A stretch of DNA of 32,000 bases, taken from assembly GCA_009784235.1 (NCBI GenBank), contig WRCC01000002.1, forward strand, positions 16,373 through 48,372, given 5' to 3'. The notes below the pieces were generated by a model. That model had not been told where the DNA came from. It made no database searches and saw only the letters and a program-made list of their open reading frames with translations. Made by a program: the position numbers and the translations under genes. Below, one piece after another: positions 3,341 to 30,243 of this stretch; the stretch's first letter is position 1, and every line of letters begins with the position of its first letter. The DNA is from Alphaproteobacteria bacterium (GTDB taxonomy: Bacteria > Pseudomonadota > Alphaproteobacteria > Rs-D84).

Positions 3341-3386
3341 TTATTTTACATGTTTTATTAGTATATTTTTACGAGAAGCATTTCCT

Positions 3387-3421
3387 ATTTATGATTTCGA
3401 ATTTATGTTTTATGATTCCGG
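3387..3421. repeat. Heptamer-array module, ATTTATG family, copy C4
   Basis: atttatg atttcga atttatg ttttatg attccgg. It matches the mnmE copy at 5513-5544 at 28/32 positions. It ends 2 nt before the SD (aaggag, 3424-3429) of the CDGSH gene. Confidence 0.7.
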
Positions 3422-4291: not shown

Positions 4292-5641
4292 TTATTTCCC
4301 AAGGCACAGTTGGCCAAATGTTGCATCCATAATTTCATCCGCGCCGATAACGCCCAGAATCCGCCCGATGGCATCCGCCGCGCGATTTACATGTTCGGCG
4401 AAAATATCTGGATTTAGGATTTCTGATTTATGATTTATGATTTTTAATTCATTCGCCGCTTCTTCCAACAATTCTTTCGCGCGCGCATTAACAACCACAT
4501 CCGATTCCGCACCGTCCAGCATTTCATGAACGCGTTGTTTTATCGCGTACAACAATTCCGGAATCCCTTCACTCGTCAGCGCGGAAACGCGTAGGGGCGC
4601 GTATTCGCGCCCTGGGGCGCAAGTATGCGCCCCTACATTCAAATCGCATTTATTATAAACGATGATTTCTCTATCCGCACCTGGGTAAACCACCCCGTCC
4701 GCGCCTCGCGGCGCGTCCACCCCTCCAAAGGAGGGAAATACACGCAAAACCAAATCTGCATTTTCGATTTCGGCGTTTGTTTTTTCGATTCCTATTTTTT
4801 CAATTTCATCCGTTGCATCACGCAATCCAGCCGTATCAGACAATCGCACCAAATATCCATCGATATCTATTTCAGCGGACACAACATCGCGCGTTGTACC
4901 CGGAATATCGGAAACTATCGCACGGGATTCGCCGACAAGACGATTAAACAATGATGATTTGCCCGCGTTAACCGGTCCGACCAATGCGATGTTAAATCCG
5001 CTGCGCACGGCGCGTGCGGCCGCGCTGCGCGCCAATACATTCGATATTTCATCATGCAATTTTTGCGTCCGCGCCACCAAAGTCTCACCGATATTCGCAG
5101 GGAGCTCATCGCTTGGATAATCCAGCATCGCCGCAGAATACGCCGCGATTTCAATCATCTGTAACCGCCAATTTTCATACACCACTGAATCCGCGCCGGC
5201 AGCAGAGCGCAATGCTGCACGCCTTTGCGCATCCGTACGCGAATCCAGTAAAGCGCACAGGCCATCAACTTCGACCAAATCCATTTTACCGTTATCAAAT
5301 GCACGCCGCGTAAATTCGCCGGGTTCGGCCATACGCGCGCCATGGCTGCGTAAGCAATCAAATAATTTTTGAATAACCGCATTCGAACCATGAACATGAA
5401 ATTCGACAACGTCTTCACCAGTAAAAGAATTCGGCGCGGCAAAATAAATCGCAATGGCGCGGTCAATTATATTGCTGTCGGCATCAATTAAGTCGGCAAG
5501 GTACGCGTGGCGATTTATGATTTCTGATTTATGATTTATGATTTGTTTGAATAATTTTTGCAAATACGTGCCAGATACGCGCACCACCGCAACGCCTGCA
5601 CGTCCATGTCCCGACGATAATGCAAAAATTGTATCGGTCAT
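4292..5641 (-). CDS. mnmE: tRNA modification GTPase MnmE (TrmE)
   Basis: Start at ATG 5641 (MTDTIFALSSGHGRAGVAVVRVSG). G1 GPVNAGKSSLFN, G2 GTTRD, G3 DTAG, G4 NKCD, G5 SAL, and the C-terminal CLGK motif. Carries three in-frame repeat insertions, listed as separate repeat features. Confidence 0.95.
   Translation of the reverse strand: MTDTIFALSSGHGRAGVAVVRVSGTYLQKLFKQIINHKSEIINRHAYLADLIDADSNIIDRAIAIYFAAPNSFTGEDVVEFHVHGSNAVIQKLFDCLRSHGARMAEPGEFTRRAFDNGKMDLVEVDGLCALLDSRTDAQRRAALRSAAGADSVVYENWRLQMIEIAAYSAAMLDYPSDELPANIGETLVARTQKLHDEISNVLARSAAARAVRSGFNIALVGPVNAGKSSLFNRLVGESRAIVSDIPGTTRDVVSAEIDIDGYLVRLSDTAGLRDATDEIEKIGIEKTNAEIENADLVLRVFPSFGGVDAPRGADGVVYPGADREIIVYNKCDLNVGAHTCAPGREYAPLRVSALTSEGIPELLYAIKQRVHEMLDGAESDVVVNARAKELLEEAANELKIINHKSEILNPDIFAEHVNRAADAIGRILGVIGADEIMDATFGQLCLGK
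4412..4446. repeat. Heptamer-array module, ATTTATG family, copy C1 (inside mnmE)
   Basis: atttagg atttctg atttatg atttatg attttta. The stretch 4411-4443 matches 5512-5544 at 32/33 positions. On the minus strand it encodes KIINHKSEILN. Confidence 0.9.
4591..4638. repeat. 48-nt GC-rich double-hairpin element, family A, copy A1 (inside mnmE)
   Basis: gtaggggcgcgtattcgcgccctggggcgcaagtatgcgcccctacat is identical to 5984-6031. It contains hairpins gggcgcg-tatt-cgcgccc and ggggcgca-agta-tgcgcccc, and its termini GTAGGGGCGC/GCGCCCCTAC are complementary. It encodes VGAHTCAPGREYAPL between G4 (NKCD) and G5 (SAL). Confidence 0.95.
5513..5547. repeat. Heptamer-array module, ATTTATG family, copy C2 (inside mnmE)
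   Basis: atttatg atttctg atttatg atttatg atttgtt. It encodes QIINHKSEIIN near the MnmE N-terminus. Confidence 0.9.
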
Positions 5642-5643
5642 TT

Positions 5644-5847
5644 TTACCTGTTCATACATTCTATGCATTTTGGCAGATGTTGTTGTAATATGGATTGTTC
5701 CCACAATTGTCTTTTCTGTTTCTGCATATCCTTAGAGACCGCACAATTCTGACAAGCCGTGGACAAATAGTACCCCCGCTTGCAGCCACAGCATTTGCAG
5801 TCATTTTCTACAACACGAATGGAATAAAGACCACATAGTTTTTTCAT
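5644..5847 (-). CDS. Small Cys-rich protein (67 aa), putative zinc-ribbon-like, unknown function
   Basis: MKKLCGLYSIRVVENDCKCCGCKRGYYLSTACQNCAVSKDMQKQKRQLWEQSILQQHLPKCIECMNR. Its ATG (5847-5845) overlaps the ruvA stop as ATGA, and its TAA ends 2 nt before the mnmE ATG. Cys pattern is C-x-CC-x-C ... CxxC ... CxxC. It fills the otherwise uncalled 200-nt gap between ruvA and mnmE. Confidence 0.4.
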   Translation of the reverse strand: MKKLCGLYSIRVVENDCKCCGCKRGYYLSTACQNCAVSKDMQKQKRQLWEQSILQQHLPKCIECMNR

Positions 5848-6413
5848 TTTGCAATCTCCTTTAATGCTAAACGCACCAATGCACCGGTATCGACATCCGG
5901 ATTTTCGCGGACCAATTTTTGCGCCAGTTCGGCGCAGTCCGCCCGGCGATAACCCAATGTTTCCAGCGCGGACAACAGGTCTTGTAGGGGCGCGTATTCG
6001 CGCCCTGGGGCGCAAGTATGCGCCCCTACATCAACCTTACCCTTTAATTCCACGATAATTTTTTCGGCGACCTTTTTGCCAACGCCCGGTGCGGATGAAA
6101 TCGTTTTTGCGTCCCCCGTCATAATTGCAGACATCAAAACATCTGGTTTCAGTGTCGATAAAATCGCCATCGCGACTTTTGGTCCAACGCCGGATACTGT
6201 GGTCAATTGATTAAATAAATCTTGCTGTGCCAGCGATGCAAATCCGAACAAACGAATTGAATCTTCACGGACAATGGTTTCAACCCAAAACGCCACAGTT
6301 TCGCCAATTTTCGAATATTCCGGCGTAAAAACTTTATACCCCACCCCATTAACCATCAGAATAATATATCCATCGCCGATATGGTCGATAATCCCTTGCA
6401 ATTTTCCAATCAT
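5844..6413 (-). CDS. ruvA: Holliday junction branch migration complex subunit RuvA
   Basis: Start at ATG 6413 (MIGKLQGII...GYIILMVNGVGYKV). HhH region LTTVSGVGPKVAMAILS ... ISSAPGVGKKVAEKIIVELK, and a C-terminal domain III (LSALETLGYRRADCAELAQKL). Family A repeat sits in the domain II-III linker. Confidence 0.95.
   Translation of the reverse strand: MIGKLQGIIDHIGDGYIILMVNGVGYKVFTPEYSKIGETVAFWVETIVREDSIRLFGFASLAQQDLFNQLTTVSGVGPKVAMAILSTLKPDVLMSAIMTGDAKTISSAPGVGKKVAEKIIVELKGKVDVGAHTCAPGREYAPLQDLLSALETLGYRRADCAELAQKLVRENPDVDTGALVRLALKEIAK
5984..6031. repeat. 48-nt GC-rich double-hairpin element, family A, copy A2 (inside ruvA)
   Basis: Identical 48 nt to 4591-4638, in the same orientation and the same reading frame (VGAHTCAPGREYAPL). 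Confidence 0.95.
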
Positions 6414-17947: not shown

Positions 17948-20451
17948 ATAATATTTTTTGCGCATCAAATCCGGCGCGTCTGCCGGATGCTTTGTGGGAA
18001 TTTTTATCCGGCCGCGATTTTTCAAACGATATTATATTTTTGCCGTCCCGGCGCGCTGTTCGCACAGTCGAACGCATGATTGTTGAAAAATCCGGCGCAA
18101 TATTATTGCCAAAATTGATAGCACTTGGCGAAGGTGCGGACGAAGATGATATCGATGCGCCGACCGATACTGTTTCCAATTTTGAACGAACACTCGTTCT
18201 GGCAAAAATGTTATCCGCATCGATGAATTCATCTGTGTCGGCCGCACTGCCCGTTGCGCGCGATTTGATTCGGATGACTGATTATTTGGAAAACGAAGGA
18301 ATTGATGCCGCCGACATAAATTGGTCCGATTTGGTTGGCGAAAAATATGCTGTGCATTTTCGGGACAAAGCACGATTCCTTGATTTGGCGGCCCGCGCCC
18401 TGCCCCTTGTATTCGCTGGGCGCGAGACATCGTCACAGCGCCGTAACAAAGATATACGCGGATGGATTGGCCATCTGAAAAATAAAACGTCCGGAAAAAT
18501 TATCGTATGCGGTTCAACCGGTTCTGTACCGGCGACAGCCGATTTGATGGCATACGTCGCTGGGCTTGATAGCGGATGCATTATTTTACCCGGGAAAATA
18601 ACATCTGCCAACCACCGACTACCAATCACCGACCCATATTATTCCGAAGCACAATTTCTACAACGAATAAACGCAGAACCAGATGACATTAAAATTATCA
18701 ACACCGGCGAAAATACAATAGATTTTTTAAACCACGCATTTTCCAATACATCTTCAAACTTCGAACTTCAAACTTTAAACTTCACAAGAATTGACTGCAC
18801 CCGCGAATCCGAAGAAGCCGAAGTTGTCGCAGAAATTACCGCGGATGCAATCGCTGAAAACAAGACTGTTTTAATCGTAACGCCAGATGCCGCCGCAAAC
18901 CAGCGTATTCGCGAATCATTCGCGCGCCGGAATATCACAGCCGATTTTTCCGGCGGAATATCTGGCGCCACATCACCGCTTGGGCGAATGATTTTACGAA
19001 TATTGGATGCCAGCGATGAAATTTATTCCGCATATAAAAAAACTAATCTTTACGGTGCGGTTATAAATATATTTGAAAAATCACACAGCGCAAAAATCAG
19101 TTTGTTTGATAACGAAGAACTGGTCACAATATTCGATACAATCCGCGAATTATCGGATATATTGCAAAACAATGATTTGGAATTGACCGCCGCGGATTTG
19201 CGAACGATTGTCGCGGACATGCTGTCATCCGCGCAAATTCGCCCGCCCATGATTGATAATGCGCGCATCTCTGTATTGGGCACGATTGAATCAAGGTTGC
19301 AGACCGCCGATATTGTGATACTGACCGGCCTGAACGAAGGCATGTTCCCAGCAATGGGCTATGAAAATCCATGGCTGCCGCGGCGAATATGCGATGAAAT
19401 CGGTCTGCCGCCACCGGAACGCAAGGTATCACTGATGGCGCTTGATTTTATAACATTATCATGCGCACGAACGGTCTATTGGACACGCAGCAAATCATCC
19501 GACGGCACAGTTACAACAGAATCACGCTTTTTGTCGCGTGTTGCAGTTGCATGTAGGGGCGCATGCAATCCGGGGTCCCCGCACGAACGAAGTTCGAGTG
19601 GGGTGGGTGCGTCCAGCACACCCCTACAAAACGCACGCGAACGCGATAATATTCCATTAAATCCGCTGGGTTATCGCGCACCAACGCCGCCGGCCAGCCG
19701 CGGCGATGTATGGGTTACTGAACTGGAATTATTAATCCATAATCCGTATGCTTTTTATGCGAAAAACATTTTGGGATTGCGTCCAAAAGACGACCCATGG
19801 AAACAAATCGGCGCCAAAGAATTCGGGATATTGGTTCATGATGTAATAGAGTCCATAGTCAACAGTCAACAGTCAACAGTAAATGATATCGTTGCGAAAC
19901 TGGATGCAAAGGCGCGGGAAATTTTGGAGCCCGGTTCAGTACTATTTCATTTTTGGCATAATCGATTTGTCGAAATGGCACCGGAAATTAAAAAATTAAT
20001 TGACCGCACGACCGGTAATTCGCGCACCGAAATCGCGGGTTCTGTTAATATCGCAGGACGCAATGTCCGTGCACGCGCAGATATGATTTTGTCCGATAAC
20101 ACAGGCGATTATGTCATAGATTTCAAAACCGGTGCAACGCCGTCAAAAGCGCAACTGGACGCGGGCAATATGCCGCAATTACCGCTGGAAGCATATATGC
20201 TGCAACGCGGCGGATTTGCCACCGCGCCGCAAACATCGAATATAGTTATCCAATTTTTACAATTAAAAAACCGTGATGTTCGAACGATTGAATATAGTGG
20301 CACGGACGCACAAAAAATGATTGATGCAGCGGTACAAAAAACATCCGAATTATTTGGTCGGTATAGCACTGATTTCGAGCCGTACGAATACCGCGAAACA
20401 TCGGATGGAAAATACAAAGCATACGACGATTTGGCAAGAATTGATGATTAA
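17935..20451 (+). CDS. addB: Double-strand break repair protein AddB (alphaproteobacterial type, PD-(D/E)XK nuclease C-terminus)
   Basis: Start at ATG 17935 (MRAINNIFCASNP...), overlapping the end of engB. The C-terminal block GDYVIDFKTGATPSKAQLDAGNMPQLPLEAYML is typical of alpha AddB. Contains three in-frame repeat insertions. No addA lies adjacent. Confidence 0.8.
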   Translation: MRAINNIFCASNPARLPDALWEFLSGRDFSNDIIFLPSRRAVRTVERMIVEKSGAILLPKLIALGEGADEDDIDAPTDTVSNFERTLVLAKMLSASMNSSVSAALPVARDLIRMTDYLENEGIDAADINWSDLVGEKYAVHFRDKARFLDLAARALPLVFAGRETSSQRRNKDIRGWIGHLKNKTSGKIIVCGSTGSVPATADLMAYVAGLDSGCIILPGKITSANHRLPITDPYYSEAQFLQRINAEPDDIKIINTGENTIDFLNHAFSNTSSNFELQTLNFTRIDCTRESEEAEVVAEITADAIAENKTVLIVTPDAAANQRIRESFARRNITADFSGGISGATSPLGRMILRILDASDEIYSAYKKTNLYGAVINIFEKSHSAKISLFDNEELVTIFDTIRELSDILQNNDLELTAADLRTIVADMLSSAQIRPPMIDNARISVLGTIESRLQTADIVILTGLNEGMFPAMGYENPWLPRRICDEIGLPPPERKVSLMALDFITLSCARTVYWTRSKSSDGTVTTESRFLSRVAVACRGACNPGSPHERSSSGVGASSTPLQNARERDNIPLNPLGYRAPTPPASRGDVWVTELELLIHNPYAFYAKNILGLRPKDDPWKQIGAKEFGILVHDVIESIVNSQQSTVNDIVAKLDAKAREILEPGSVLFHFWHNRFVEMAPEIKKLIDRTTGNSRTEIAGSVNIAGRNVRARADMILSDNTGDYVIDFKTGATPSKAQLDAGNMPQLPLEAYMLQRGGFATAPQTSNIVIQFLQLKNRDVRTIEYSGTDAQKMIDAAVQKTSELFGRYSTDFEPYEYRETSDGKYKAYDDLARIDD
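18752..18786. repeat. Heptamer-array module, CTTCAAA family, copy D1 (inside addB)
   Basis: cttcaaa cttcgaa cttcaaa ctttaaa cttcaca encodes SSNFELQTLNFT. It matches the reverse complement of the left arm of 25835-25869 at about 28/32 positions. Confidence 0.85.
19553..19627. repeat. 75-nt GC-rich palindromic element, family A-like, copy A3 (inside addB)
   Basis: gtaggggcgcatgcaatccggggtccccgcacgaacgaagttcgagtggggtgggtgcgtccagcacacccctac. It has the same GTAGGGGCGCAT...CCCCTAC termini as family A. An internal 12-bp hairpin ccccgcacgaac-gaa-gttcgagtgggg has one mismatch. 75 nt equals 25 codons (RGACNPGSPHERSSSGVGASSTPL). Confidence 0.8.
19850..19884. repeat. Heptamer-array module, AGTCAAC family, copy E1 (inside addB)
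   Basis: agtccat agtcaac agtcaac agtcaac agtaaat encodes SIVNSQQSTVN. Confidence 0.75.
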
Positions 20452-20478
20452 AAAATCCGCCGTTCGGCGGATTTTTAT
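20451..20478. terminator. Bidirectional rho-independent terminator
   Basis: aaaAATCCGCCgttcGGCGGATTtttat, directly after the addB stop. Confidence 0.7.
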
Positions 20479-21011
20479 TCTGAAAATATTCTTTCAACTT
20501 CTGCAACGAACTGTATTGCCGGTTCGCCCAGACGGTTGGCTTTGTCCAGTATTCTGCGAAATTCGCGCGCAAATTCGCCCTGTTCGGTGGCCAGGTTTCT
20601 ATAAATCTGCATCTGCATTTGATTAAAATTTCTGTCAGTATTACGTTGGTTAATTTCCCCGTGTAATGCGTTCGCAATTTCCAATTGACGCGTGGCCGCT
20701 GCGCGGAATTTGTCCGCATTTTCCGGACAACCCCAATTTACCAAGTCAACATAAACCTGGGCATTATCCAAAAATCTTTCGGGGCTGTAAGTCGGAATAT
20801 CGGATTCGTTTTCAATCCTTTCCATTAATTTTGATTCAACGACTTCACACACGCGTTCTTGGGCATTTTCATTTGTCGGTGCCACCGGCGCCTTTGCGGG
20901 AATATGCGCAAGCGACAACCCAATAAATACACCAACGCCAAAAATCACAGCAATAATTATATATAATATTATTTTGGATGTGTGTGCTTCGTGCGTTGTA
21001 TTTTTTGGCAT
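20475..21011 (-). CDS. Hypothetical membrane-anchored protein
   Basis: Start at ATG 21011, preceded by the strong SD aaaggagagag (MPKNTTHEAHTSKIILYIIIAVIFGVGVFIGLSL...). One N-terminal TM segment, with the remainder predicted helical. I recognised no domain. Confidence 0.7.
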   Translation of the reverse strand: MPKNTTHEAHTSKIILYIIIAVIFGVGVFIGLSLAHIPAKAPVAPTNENAQERVCEVVESKLMERIENESDIPTYSPERFLDNAQVYVDLVNWGCPENADKFRAAATRQLEIANALHGEINQRNTDRNFNQMQMQIYRNLATEQGEFAREFRRILDKANRLGEPAIQFVAEVERIFSE

Positions 21012-25820: not shown

Positions 25821-25834
25821 CCACTCGACCTTTT

Positions 25835-25909
25835 AAGTTTGAAGTAGGAAGTTTGAAGTTTGAAGAAATTATCTCTTCCGGCTTCAACCTTCAAACTTTC
25901 TCCTTTGAC
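25835..25909. repeat. Head-to-head dimer of the CTTCAAA/AAGTTTG heptamer module (copy D2)
   Basis: Left block 25835-25869 is aagtttg aagtagg aagtttg aagtttg aagaaat. The centre is tatct. Right block 25875-25909 is cttccgg cttcaac cttcaaa ctttctc ctttgac. Confidence 0.85.
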
Positions 25910-27340: not shown

Positions 27341-27426
27341 TGGTGGGCATGGATAGATTCGAACCATCTCAGTCTAAGACAACAGATTTACAGTCTGCCC
27401 CGGCTCTCCGACTCCGGCGCATGCCC
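27341..27426 (-). tRNA. tRNA-Tyr (GUA)
   Basis: 86 nt: GGGCATG..GCAGA-CTGTAAA-TCTGT, a long variable arm, T-arm GATGG-TTCGAAT-CTATC, acceptor CATGCCC, and an encoded ACCA. Confidence 0.93.
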
Positions 27427-27437
27427 AAAGCAAATCT

Positions 27438-27512
27438 TGGTGCGGGCAGAGGGAATCGAACCCTCATCTCAAGCTTGGAAGGCTCGCATACTAGCCTTTG
27501 TACTATGCCCGC
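27438..27512 (-). tRNA. tRNA-Gly (UCC)
   Basis: 75 nt: GCGGGCA-TA-GTAC..GTAT-G-CGAGC-CTTCCAA-GCTTG-AGAT-GAGGG-TTCGATT-CCCTC-TGCCCGC-ACCA. Confidence 0.93.
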
Positions 27513-27971: not shown

Positions 27972-27982
27972 GAAACAAAATT

Positions 27983-28104
27983 GTCATTGCGAACACAGTG
28001 AAGCAATCCAGTTAATAAATTATTTTTATAAAATTGTAGGGGCGCATATTTGCGCCCCTTTATCAATCAACTGGATTGCTTTGTCGCTTACGCTCCTCGC
28101 TGTC
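27983..28104. repeat. Palindromic repeat family B, copy B2, with a family A-type hairpin nested in its loop
   Basis: Arms are gtcattgcgaacacagtgaagcaatccagtt (27983-28012) and aactggattgctttgtcgcttacgctcctcgctgtc (28069-28104). The loop contains gtaGGGGCGCAtattTGCGCCCCt (28036-28059). It fills the gap between two convergent genes. Confidence 0.8.
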
Positions 28105-28512
28105 TTAATTCGCACATCTGTTGCAAGAATTACGAACAACCTGGCGTTCAGATGTATTTCCAACATGCTGGTACACTGTTACCGGCTGATAAACCGCATA
28201 ATGATTAATTACTTCGCTGTGCGTATGAACGCGAACGGGTGCTGCGGCACGTTGTGCGCATGGCGCGGCAACGCGGGCTTGACCACAATTTGCACGCTGG
28301 CATCCACATGAACGTGCGGATTGCATAGATGTTACATGATAAACCGGCTGTTGTTGGATATTTTGAACACGTGCGGTTTCTTGCGTTGTCGTGCGAACGG
28401 TACGATAATAGCCAACAGATTGCCCGCCGTCGTGCGGGAAACCGCTGTCCGATGCCATTGCTGAACCCGCTGCAAACATTGCAATCATTGGTAAAATTAA
28501 CAATTTTTTCAT
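28105..28512 (-). CDS. Hypothetical secreted protein (135 aa)
   Basis: Signal peptide MKKLLILPMIAMFAAGSAMA and SD aaaaggag. Gln/Val/Cys-rich, with repeated VY(H/Q) motifs. I recognised no domain. Confidence 0.65.
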   Translation of the reverse strand: MKKLLILPMIAMFAAGSAMASDSGFPHDGGQSVGYYRTVRTTTQETARVQNIQQQPVYHVTSMQSARSCGCQRANCGQARVAAPCAQRAAAPVRVHTHSEVINHYAVYQPVTVYQHVGNTSERQVVRNSCNRCAN

Positions 28513-28564: not shown

Positions 28565-28640
28565 GTTTAATTTAAAGAATCAAATATGGCACTTTTACAG
28601 CCTTTAACATTGACCATGGACTTTTTGCCATGACAATTAA

Positions 28641-28665
28641 AAACACCCCTTTCGGGGTGTTTTTA
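28641..28665. terminator. Bidirectional rho-independent terminator (after the ligase gene)
   Basis: aaaaACACCCCtttcGGGGTGTtttt. Confidence 0.7.
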
Positions 28666-30243
28666 ATTATGCTGTAACGGATATGTGCCGGATTCCAGCC
28701 TTTCCCGCACAACATGATGTTTCACTTTTTGCGTGGATGTCAAAGGCAAGTCTTCCATAGTCATCGCAAAATGGGTCACCCATTTATACGACGCGACTTT
28801 TTTATTTTTCTCTGCGATTGCCTTGGCCAATTTATCCATCGTCATGCCTTGCTCAACTTGGAAAACGCCGTATGATACGGTTTTCCCACGAACCACATGT
28901 TCGAACACAGCAACATTCTTAACGCCTTTGATTTCCAGGAACATTGCTTCCAATTCATCTGGATACACGTTTTTCCCGGAATCCAAAACAATGATTTGTT
29001 TTTTACGACCATGAAAATGCAGTTCACCGTTTTTATCCATCGACACCAAATCACCCGTATTAAAAAACCCGCGCTCATCAAATACTTCGGAATTCGCCGC
29101 CGGATTGGATAAATATCCGCCGAACACTTGATGCCCGCGCAGCCACAAAACGCCGATGCCGGCATCGTTCTTTTCGCGGATTTCGCATTCGTTATTCGTA
29201 ATCGGTCCACCGAAAGCGTACGGCACGCGGCCTTTGCGCGGTTTCGATATGCAGATTGGCCCAACTGTTTCGGTCAAACCATATCCCTGGATAAATGTCA
29301 GCCCCAAACGTTCATAAAACTTTTCCACTTCTGGTTTCGTTGCGGCACCGCCGGCGATAAGCAGACGTGCACGGCCACCGAATACAGCCAGGACTTGTTC
29401 TTGAATTTTTTCGACCAAGAATCCCAGTCCGATTTTTTTCAGTGTATTTCCGTATTTCAGAACAATACGTGCCAACCACCATTTCTTTTTGGCCTTTATT
29501 CCGTCAATAATTTTATTGCGGAAAACTTCCCAAACGCGTGGCACGGCCGGAATAATATGCGGACGATATTTTTTAAAGTCGGCCAGAATTTCCGCCGGAT
29601 TAACCGTTGCTTGCAAAACAATATTTCCGCGGAATTCAATGGTTGCCAATATTTCAATCGCAAATCCATAAACGTGGTACATCGGCAAAAATCCATACAG
29701 AGTATCGCCACGATGTATCCATTCTGACATATCTTGCAAAGACGCTGCACATTCAACCAAGTTATAATGGGTCAATGGCACAATTTTCGGGTTTCCAGTC
29801 GAACCAGATGTGAACGACAATGTCGCAATATCCAGCGATTCAACCGCCGCCGGTTTCAATTTCGCCGGTGCGGCTTTGTCTTTGGATTCGATATCAAAGA
29901 ATTCGAAACTTTTCGTTTTATAGAAAAACTTCTTTTCCGCCGCAACGACTTTACAATCGGTTAATTTGGCCATATTGTCGTATTCAAACGGCGTCAAATT
30001 AGTATCCAGCAACAGACATTGTCCACCCAAATACCAAACTGCAAACGCGGTCAATGGGAATTCAGGAATATTGTGCGCCAAGATTCCAACGACGGAACCT
30101 TTGCCAACGCCCATCGCAGCCAGCGTGCCGGCGCGTTTTTTGACGCTTTCATTAAACTGTGTGTATGTGACATTTTCACGCGTCAGAAACACATGGTCCG
30201 GGGCGTCATTAACGGCCCGTTCCAAAAATTTATACATGTTCAT
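28663..30243 (-). CDS. AMP-dependent synthetase/ligase (long-chain fatty acid-CoA ligase-like)
   Basis: AMP-binding signature LSFTSGSTGNPK, plus GYGLTET, TGDL and the GRKKQIIVLDSGKNVYPDELE blocks. Confidence 0.88.
   Translation of the reverse strand: MNMYKFLERAVNDAPDHVFLTRENVTYTQFNESVKKRAGTLAAMGVGKGSVVGILAHNIPEFPLTAFAVWYLGGQCLLLDTNLTPFEYDNMAKLTDCKVVAAEKKFFYKTKSFEFFDIESKDKAAPAKLKPAAVESLDIATLSFTSGSTGNPKIVPLTHYNLVECAASLQDMSEWIHRGDTLYGFLPMYHVYGFAIEILATIEFRGNIVLQATVNPAEILADFKKYRPHIIPAVPRVWEVFRNKIIDGIKAKKKWWLARIVLKYGNTLKKIGLGFLVEKIQEQVLAVFGGRARLLIAGGAATKPEVEKFYERLGLTFIQGYGLTETVGPICISKPRKGRVPYAFGGPITNNECEIREKNDAGIGVLWLRGHQVFGGYLSNPAANSEVFDERGFFNTGDLVSMDKNGELHFHGRKKQIIVLDSGKNVYPDELEAMFLEIKGVKNVAVFEHVVRGKTVSYGVFQVEQGMTMDKLAKAIAEKNKKVASYKWVTHFAMTMEDLPLTSTQKVKHHVVRERLESGTYPLQHN

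Follow-up and report, generated by a model that had tools for sequence, protein, structure and literature searches.

Repetitive extragenic palindromic (REP) sequences of the GTAG and CGTC superfamilies were defined by Di Nocera et al. in 2013 (PMC3733652). According to this study a GTAG REP is a palindrome of 20-40 bp with a stem of 5-13 bp, a loop of 2-20 nt and a terminal GTAG. Such units are repeated tens of times or more in a genome, mostly between genes, and often pair head-to-head or tail-to-tail (PMC3733652). In Opitutus terrae such units form head-to-head dimers with spacers of 1-2 bp, and units nested in larger palindromes were described as well (PMC3733652). Intragenic REPs and dimers are often located in repair, replication and tRNA-modification genes, where they probably encode linkers or loops, and two of the Rickettsia palindromic elements (RPEs), RPE-4 and RPE-6, were classed as CGTC REPs (PMC3733652). 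In our study we analyzed a stretch of 32,000 nt from a termite-gut alphaproteobacterium (contig WRCC01000002.1, hereafter the window), in which mnmE and ruvA carry the same 48-nt element; all data are metagenome assemblies. We propose that this 48-mer is probably a head-to-head heterodimer of ~22-nt GTAG-type REP units, that is, a minimal doublet similar to REP doublets forming hairpins (REPINs) and bacterial interspersed mosaic elements (BIMEs), which persists selfishly.

The copies in mnmE (4591-4638) and ruvA (5984-6031) agree at 48 of 48 positions, and the number of such matches expected from shuffled sequences is 0. Both are located on the coding (minus) strand in one common reading frame and encode the peptide VGAHTCAPGREYAPL. 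On the coding strand the mnmE copy reads AAT GTA GGG ... CCC CTA C, which gives N-VGAHTCAPGREYAPL, and the ruvA copy, which together with its flanks ends in the palindrome TGTAG...CTACA (5983-6030), encodes D-VGAHTCAPGREYAPL-Q. The direct comparison bears out an earlier note on this DNA, which had claimed full identity, shared orientation and shared frame for the two copies. Each 48-mer is an inverted pair of ~22-nt units of the form GTAGGGGCGC-(6 nt)-GCGCCC, separated by a 2-nt spacer and with the GTAG termini facing outward. In mnmE the units span 4591-4612 (plus orientation, loop GTATTC) and 4615-4636 (minus orientation, loop ATACTT), and in ruvA 5984-6005 and 6008-6029; since the two loops are unlike, the doublet is a heterodimer. 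The note had also suggested folding into either two hairpins or one long hairpin, and both folds were computed. As single-stranded DNA the 48-mer forms two adjacent hairpins at -22.5 kcal/mol (z = -6.8), whereas one long hairpin with the outer arms forced to pair reaches -20.4 kcal/mol and is thus ~2 kcal/mol worse. As RNA the minimum-energy fold is the long hairpin with -36 to -39 kcal/mol. A lone unit of 22-24 nt, with a stem of 7-8 bp and a loop of 4-6 nt, folds at -12.1 kcal/mol (z = -6.3). GTAG starts all five units of the window and 106 of 106 pattern matches, the pattern itself having demanded GTAG, and stem-variant subfamilies likewise retain GTAGGGGC. Rfam at gathering thresholds contained no family for the element, and its sole matches were two tRNAs.

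In size, stem, loop, GTAG tag and dimer formation the element agrees with the description of GTAG REPs, and with two inverted REPs able to form one long hairpin it resembles a REPIN (PMC3116915, PMC3337134). As in RPEs, it is present in frame in many unrelated genes, but it is not an RPE because its tag is GTAG and not CGTC, a judgement based on the tag and not on a consensus alignment. Neither is it a miniature inverted-repeat transposable element, which combines terminal inverted repeats with a target-site duplication, because such a duplication is absent. Judged by its sequence the element belongs to a known kind, the GTAG REP dimer. The earlier note had compared it to Rickettsia RPEs of different sequence; the likeness in behaviour stands, since a GC-rich palindromic repeat is indeed found in frame in unrelated proteins. 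The element is no unclassified novelty, since the GTAG-REP superfamily fits (PMC3733652). The stem family and the peptide of the element had no match in the text and supplements of that paper, with the figures of GTAG-1 to GTAG-24 being outside this comparison.

Further copies, as expected in the earlier note, were identified both in the window and, by the dozen, in related genomes. The window contains five units at three sites, the third of which is a single intergenic REP unit, GTAGGGGCGCATATTTGCGCCC(C), at 28036-28057 on the plus strand. This unit lies within the spacer of a larger palindrome, the arms of which (AGCAATCCAGT) are located at 28002-28012 and 28070-28080, and a second copy of the larger palindrome at 687-726 is without REP unit. 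The larger repeat (GTCATTGCGA...AGCAATCCAGT / ACTGGATTGCT...CTCGC) thus has two copies, within 660-760 and 27975-28105; the spacer measures 18 nt in one and 57 nt in the other, where it holds the single REP unit and AT-rich flanks. The two copies may either represent an empty and a filled site or be variants of one composite repeat. The arrangement of the unit with ACTGGATTGC was found again in the metagenome-assembled genome (MAG) EPI_MAG_00286.

When one genome of each species was scanned with a pattern spanning three loop variants of the unit, 87 loci were revealed in reference genomes (L### denotes retrieved loci and P#### homologous proteins in the following). EPI_MAG_00286, an alphaproteobacterial MAG of ~0.9 Mb, accounts for 34 of them. 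Another 18 are spread over five MAGs classed as alphaproteobacterial, Rickettsiales or unclassified proteobacterial (Nt197P3bin78, Nt197P3bin44, Cu122P5bin52, Gx481_bin12 and Gx485_bin105). Most single units are located outside long open frames. Gammaproteobacteria (Rheinheimera, Arsukibacterium and two MAGs) contain 26 loci, and Bacteroidales, Porphyromonadaceae and Lachnospiraceae bins contain 9. In the MAG codes, Nt197 denotes the gut of the higher termite Neocapritermes taracua and Cu122 that of Cubitermes ugandensis (PMC7024585). The window belongs to none of the genomes with units and shares 70-79% DNA identity with the alphaproteobacterial ones; L020 is a syntenic ortholog locus. In JGI metagenomes a doublet scan gave 34 loci, all in a few contig series with termite-gut datasets among them. 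The distinct head-to-head doublets number 35, with 1-12 nt between their units, and stem subfamilies with compensatory changes occur together. By these sequence comparisons, the units form a family that is divided into several stem subfamilies and is widespread in the small genomes of a termite-gut alphaproteobacterial clade. Phage contigs scanned with the unit and doublet patterns gave 0 matches and therefore do not support a phage vector, although two prophage-like terminase genes do carry the doublet. A profile of the element peptide, tripled to 48 aa, found 1470 word-sharing candidates among 5.8 billion sequences, none of them with E <= 10.

Within the termite-gut clade, in-frame doublets or units were detected in at least 12 protein families. 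Genic hosts in two species each are TrmB, QueA and terminase; further hosts are MutS, MnmG (two copies in one gene), Obg, class II fructose-bisphosphate aldolase, an AddB-like nuclease, a radical-SAM-like protein, GatA, an M23 peptidase and a MerR regulator. Doublets with a core of 45-46 nt are mostly found within long open reading frames (ORFs) and those with cores of 51-56 nt mostly in short frames. At 12 of 13 independent genic sites GTA-GGG is the frame used in the first half (binomial p about 0.002), and 11 of the 13 share a single orientation (binomial p about 0.011). The G-TAG frame is closed by a stop, the third frame leads to an arginine-rich peptide, and opposite orientation or other frames yield other peptides in other hosts. 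We infer that such a bias would result if selection filtered insertions that had occurred at random.

The host gene mnmE (4292-5641, minus strand) encodes a protein of 449 aa with the Pfam domains TrmE_N, MMR_HSR1 and MnmE_helical, which is identical to NCBI MCL2538224.1. The product of ruvA (5844-6413, minus strand) has 189 aa with RuvA_N, HHH_5 and RuvA_C and is identical to MCL2538225.1. Alignment to 1xzp and 9hip located the MnmE element at residues ~336-351 in the loop between the G4 (NKCD) and G5 (SAL) motifs, and in RuvA the element constitutes the linker between domains II and III (residues 129-143), with HHH_5 ending at 124 and RuvA_C starting at 142. Alignment and Pfam boundaries, respectively, confirm the positions given in the earlier note. 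AlphaFold models of the element-bearing proteins, a check proposed there, were based on ortholog alignments and predicted that both folds are retained. The MnmE model reached a predicted local distance difference test (pLDDT) score of 85, and its element was modelled as a coil of reduced confidence, with means of 73 and 64 in blocks of ten residues. For RuvA the pLDDT was 76, residues 128-139 were below 50, and the helix of domain III begins at 142.

A clean insertion of 16 codons adding 15 residues to each protein had been claimed before, and this description did not hold. Compared to the closest orthologs the net length change is only +3 aa at the MnmE site and +3 aa at the RuvA site, both proteins are of normal length there, and unrelated residues fill the corresponding positions in these orthologs. 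The element residues align to E. coli MnmE (9hip) free of gaps and to the T. thermophilus RuvA linker (1ixr) with small offsetting gaps, resulting in a net +1 residue. Minus the 16 element codons, the RuvA segment would have 21 residues compared to an ortholog minimum of 34 (n = 60), and the MnmE segment 14 compared to a minimum of 21 (n = 45). Native sequence was lost in both proteins because the element-free segments would undercut every one of the 45-60 nearest orthologs. The alignments indicate that the element replaced a native loop or linker of similar length in MnmE and RuvA, with its terminal CTA codon standing in for a conserved native leucine in both genes. True net insertions were observed elsewhere, where MutS gained 18 residues relative to 1ewr and QueA 11 relative to 1yy3. 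At the junctions of nine genic copies no target-site duplication, i.e. no direct repeat of flanking bases, was present; the left flank is mostly (A/G)AT and the right flank CAA. The G4-G5 loop of MnmE and the RuvA linker also carry other repeat families in relatives. Many RuvA linkers of the clade (P0003-P0060) read GDWGL, GHWALG or FDF-G-D, sequences that look like translated short tandem or heptamer repeats, and from such sequences the RuvA linker seems to take up sequence derived from repeats in general, while its length stays roughly constant.

The two identical copies differ greatly in age because the ruvA site is old and the mnmE copy is specific to one lineage. At least five lineages have a copy at the ruvA site, i.e. 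the window, L091, L093, L128 and L129. L091 has an intact doublet with an 8-nt spacer, L093 a decayed copy with 33 of 45 nt identical, and L129 a partly decayed copy. The doublet of L128 consists of other units, whose stems GGGGCGTAT and GGGGCGAAT are compensatory, and shares the right junction. Unrelated linkers of similar length were found in L020 and most other RuvA orthologs. Among 120 homologs the mnmE copy is restricted to the species of the window, and in other relatives the same MnmE loop holds a different hairpin family (HPSxGGE). Comparison of orthologs therefore dates the ruvA copy as old and the mnmE copy as young. The mnmE loop of L091 (VGPENTGKDNGFSL) was considered as a decayed copy and rejected, as the DNA similarity was unconvincing.

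Perfect identity had been read in the earlier note as a sign of recent spread or gene conversion. However, copies at orthologous sites are 46-48/48 identical in host genes of only ~65% identity, and identity is no dating evidence because copies of different species are near-identical despite the divergence of their host genes. In four orthologous pairs (RuvA, QueA, TrmB and terminase) the element is identical at 182 of 189 nt (96%) and the rest of the genes at 1668 of 2523 nt (66%). Where the amino acids are identical, 56 of 58 third positions are the same in the element versus 273 of 539 outside (p = 1.3e-13), and the synonymous sites around the element are saturated. Differences between orthologous sites are confined to the loops, with GTAG and the stems being invariant. 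Selection at the protein level cannot account for this conservation because 56 of 58 synonymous third positions were kept. The pattern fits upkeep by an enzyme for which GTAG and a perfect stem are required, as reported for TnpA-REP in vitro (PMC8266576); a master copy that repeatedly overwrites the others and a functional hairpin are compatible with it as well. A literature search on concerted evolution of intragenic REPs returned nothing specific, and the near-exclusive genic location of the 48-nt form, the cross-species identity at orthologous codons and the loop replacement in MnmE and RuvA look unreported in the literature consulted.

Besides the REP units, mnmE contains further repeats. 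Heptamer-type repeats (GATTTAT/ATCATAA-like) are located at 4411-4457 and 5498-5544, both in mnmE, and at 3372-3418 and 10364-10445. In mnmE they read IINHKSEI(I/L)N in frame at two sites, and the same peptide is present in the AddB-like protein of L038 and in the MnmE protein P0148. The C-terminal heptamer copy is missing from L091 and L020; the N-terminal segment is as long as the native IINKKSEIKNRY of orthologs and may be no insertion. At 4693-4740 (residues ~303-321) a CCCTCC-N3-GGAGGG hairpin and a GC-rich palindrome encode FPSFGGVDAPRGADGVV, a segment with ~10 residues more than in L091 and L020 that is predicted to be disordered (pLDDT <50). It is common to the closest MnmE relatives P0122, P0124, P0131 and P0133, whose G4-G5 loop holds the same hairpin family (HPSxGGE), and similar CCCCTCC hairpins come after single REP units in L035, L045 and L047. 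P0122 (676 aa) has an insertion of ~190 aa in its N-terminal loop, with precomputed Pfam matches to PF04480 and PF18741 in addition to the usual MnmE families. Between ruvA and mnmE, overlapping the ruvA stop, lies a cysteine-rich ORF of 67 aa (5644-5847, minus strand), which is conserved and has CxxC-type motifs and no recorded Pfam match; small ORFs called at this position have 68 aa in L091 and 62 aa in L129. Elsewhere in the window a CTTCAAACTTCGAACTTCAAACTT-like short repeat family forms an inverted pair 7 kb apart (18751-18784 and 25831-25866), and two tRNA genes are located at 27344-27512. Hairpins of the type AAAAA-stem-loop-TTTTT (10021-10049, 12057-12085, 12340-12368, 20451-20479 and 28639-28667) look like ordinary bidirectional intrinsic terminators by their sequence.

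In REPIN-RAYT systems the cognate gene for a REP-associated tyrosine transposase (RAYT) is located in the same genome and has REPs on its flanks (PMC3116915, PMC3337134). For TnpA-REP it was reported that in vitro GTAG is essential, stem mismatches lower cleavage and loops matter less (PMC8266576). We searched for Y1 transposases with tblastn, phmmer and the HUH...Y motif among the ORFs in all six frames of the window and of 128 loci; an E. coli RayT sequence served as a probe only. An ORF in L087, a Bacteroidales MAG, matched the family NF047646 of NCBIfam (REP-associated tyrosine transposase) with E = 3.9e-14 and weakly E. coli TnpA-REP (4er8). It has a REP unit on each side and a third, inverted unit in frame inside. 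In L087 (1692-2415) this internal unit reads RAQICAPT and is placed between the HUH motif and a WQRNYYEH motif, and the stop codon of the ORF is the TAG of the downstream unit. The RAYT link is thus shown for the unit but not for the termite-gut clade, because in the DNA searched L087 alone has a RAYT-like ORF.

Considering these results, copies of the doublet would be made or renewed on single-stranded DNA, either through a HUH/Y1 enzyme of the RAYT type that works in trans or through conversion of one copy by another. Selection would then retain tolerable copies, i.e. those with a length that is a multiple of three and a stop-free, non-basic frame (VGAH-CAPGRE-APL-Q), and such copies would remain in surface loops or flexible linkers of proteins that tolerate changes in length. 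In ruvA the doublet may have been turned into a linker long ago and kept or overwritten since. The mnmE copy, 1.4 kb off, would have arisen later in this lineage, plausibly as a copy of a master sequence of the family. The agent, transposase or conversion, is putative, and the native loops may have been lost in a single step or through an insertion with later deletion. Several observations speak against selfish persistence of a REP doublet. The L087 ORF scored 52.8 bits, which is under the curated cutoff of 80, and belongs to a MAG of another phylum, and apart from L087 neither the window, the 32 kb of the source genome that were covered, nor ~930 kb of REP-site DNA gave a Y1 transposase. Neither copy in the window has a clean empty-site counterpart or a target-site duplication, and simple transposition cannot account for the loss of ~13 native codons per site. 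For many loci the call as genic or intergenic stems from an open-frame heuristic and not from annotation. Moreover, a master sequence shared across several species could equally reflect function.

Among the alternatives, the copies may be relics of an extinct mobile element, which were homogenised only by RecA-type gene conversion among the 48-bp copies or hairpin template switching in a clade without a dedicated transposase. Gene conversion has long been proposed for the homogeneity of REPs (Higgins 1988, cited in PMC3733652), and the missing RAYT in the REP-site DNA of these genomes, the short distance between the two identical copies and the replacement of native codons, which is more like conversion or templated repair than cut-and-paste, agree with it. 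However, conversion alone should lead to a species-specific consensus, whereas the same master (loops ATACTT and GAATAC) was found in at least five contig sets or MAGs, and conversion creates no copies at new sites such as the mnmE loop. We regard this explanation as possible but doubtful. Somewhat less probable, in our view, is that the 48-nt doublet represents a coding-adapted REPIN lineage that is actively maintained in essential genes, either through overwriting by a Y1 enzyme or conversion with a one-step loop swap, or through an acquired DNA or RNA function. If this were true, selfish DNA would evolve slower than its essential host genes.

A third explanation is that the doublet is not selfish but a functional cis-element selected at the DNA or RNA level, for example a strong mRNA hairpin that paces translation from one domain to the next or a site for binding or cleavage by a host protein. 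The invariant GTAG and stems of the four gene pairs amid saturated synonymous sites would be expected for such an element, as would the retention of a GTAG doublet at the ruvA site despite compensatory stem changes, the strong RNA hairpin and the position of the RuvA copy exactly between domains. Nevertheless, about a dozen unrelated proteins as well as intergenic DNA contain the same sequence, and its positions follow no common functional logic; the copies in L093 and L129 are decaying, close orthologs (L020 ruvA; L091 and L020 mnmE) are without the element, and no Rfam family matched. We consider a cis-element unlikely. That VGAHTCAPGREYAPL is a module selected at the protein level in both proteins, such as a His/Cys metal or redox motif, is very improbable: the peptide is identical in both and contains His and Cys, but its synonymous third positions are conserved, AlphaFold predicts a disordered coil, and other orientations or frames result in different peptides in other hosts. 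Finally, metagenome assemblies as data source and short contigs of the locus that stop near repeats could suggest an artefact of assembly or binning, either a chimeric join, as mentioned in the earlier note, or a collapsed repeat, but this can practically be dismissed since three independent assemblies contain the identical RuvA and two long contigs, of 498,326 and 312,735 nt, the identical MnmE, the reading frames are correct on both sides of each copy, and orthologous genes of other species contain the element.

The clade described here is a natural experiment on the mobility and spread of REPs and on their service to the host, as the same 48-nt doublet is present at orthologous codons of essential genes in several species; therefore its conservation can be measured directly against the neutral divergence of flanking codons, and a single gene allows sites that are occupied, decayed or empty to be compared. 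The results also imply that repeat DNA can rewrite flexible loops and linkers of core proteins (RuvA, MnmE, MutS, TrmB, QueA and MnmG) in reduced genomes. In practice, annotation and assembly of such MAGs call for caution.

Like RPE-1 to RPE-8 of Rickettsia (Ogata et al. 2000, 2002, cited in PMC3733652), the element is a palindrome located in frame in many housekeeping genes of a host-associated alphaproteobacterium with a small genome. Similar to RPEs it forms surface-exposed segments that are tolerated by the proteins. Unlike RPEs it has a GTAG tag, RPE-4 and RPE-6 being CGTC elements, and no sequence relationship is evident, as judged without an alignment. RPE-1 is about 100-150 bp long. 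GC clusters and double-hairpin elements of fungal mitochondria are also short GC-rich hairpins in AT-richer genomes and sometimes in frame in genes; however, they belong to a different genetic system and are without a GTAG tag. To our knowledge, they have no relation to Y1 transposases. The invariant GTAG and perfect stem together with free loops resemble the requirements of single-stranded DNA processing by IS200/IS605 and TnpA-REP (PMC8266576, PMC3479197), although activity of such an enzyme on the 48-nt element would follow from this analogy only, and in vivo mobility of REPs by TnpA-REP was not demonstrated (PMC8266576). In contrast to the GTAG REPs described, no RAYT was found in the searched DNA of the clade, the tight doublet is mostly located within genes and not between them, copies at orthologous sites are near-identical, and native residues were replaced in MnmE and RuvA. 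Nevertheless, the element shares with GTAG REPs, BIMEs and REPINs the GTAG end, a GC stem of 7-8 bp and a short loop (PMC3733652, PMC3116915). As for GTAG REPs, it forms head-to-head dimers with a spacer of 1-2 bp, has complementary stem subfamilies and is nested in larger palindromes, and its copies in repair and tRNA-modification genes encode loop or linker residues, while in one genome the units flank a RAYT-like gene.

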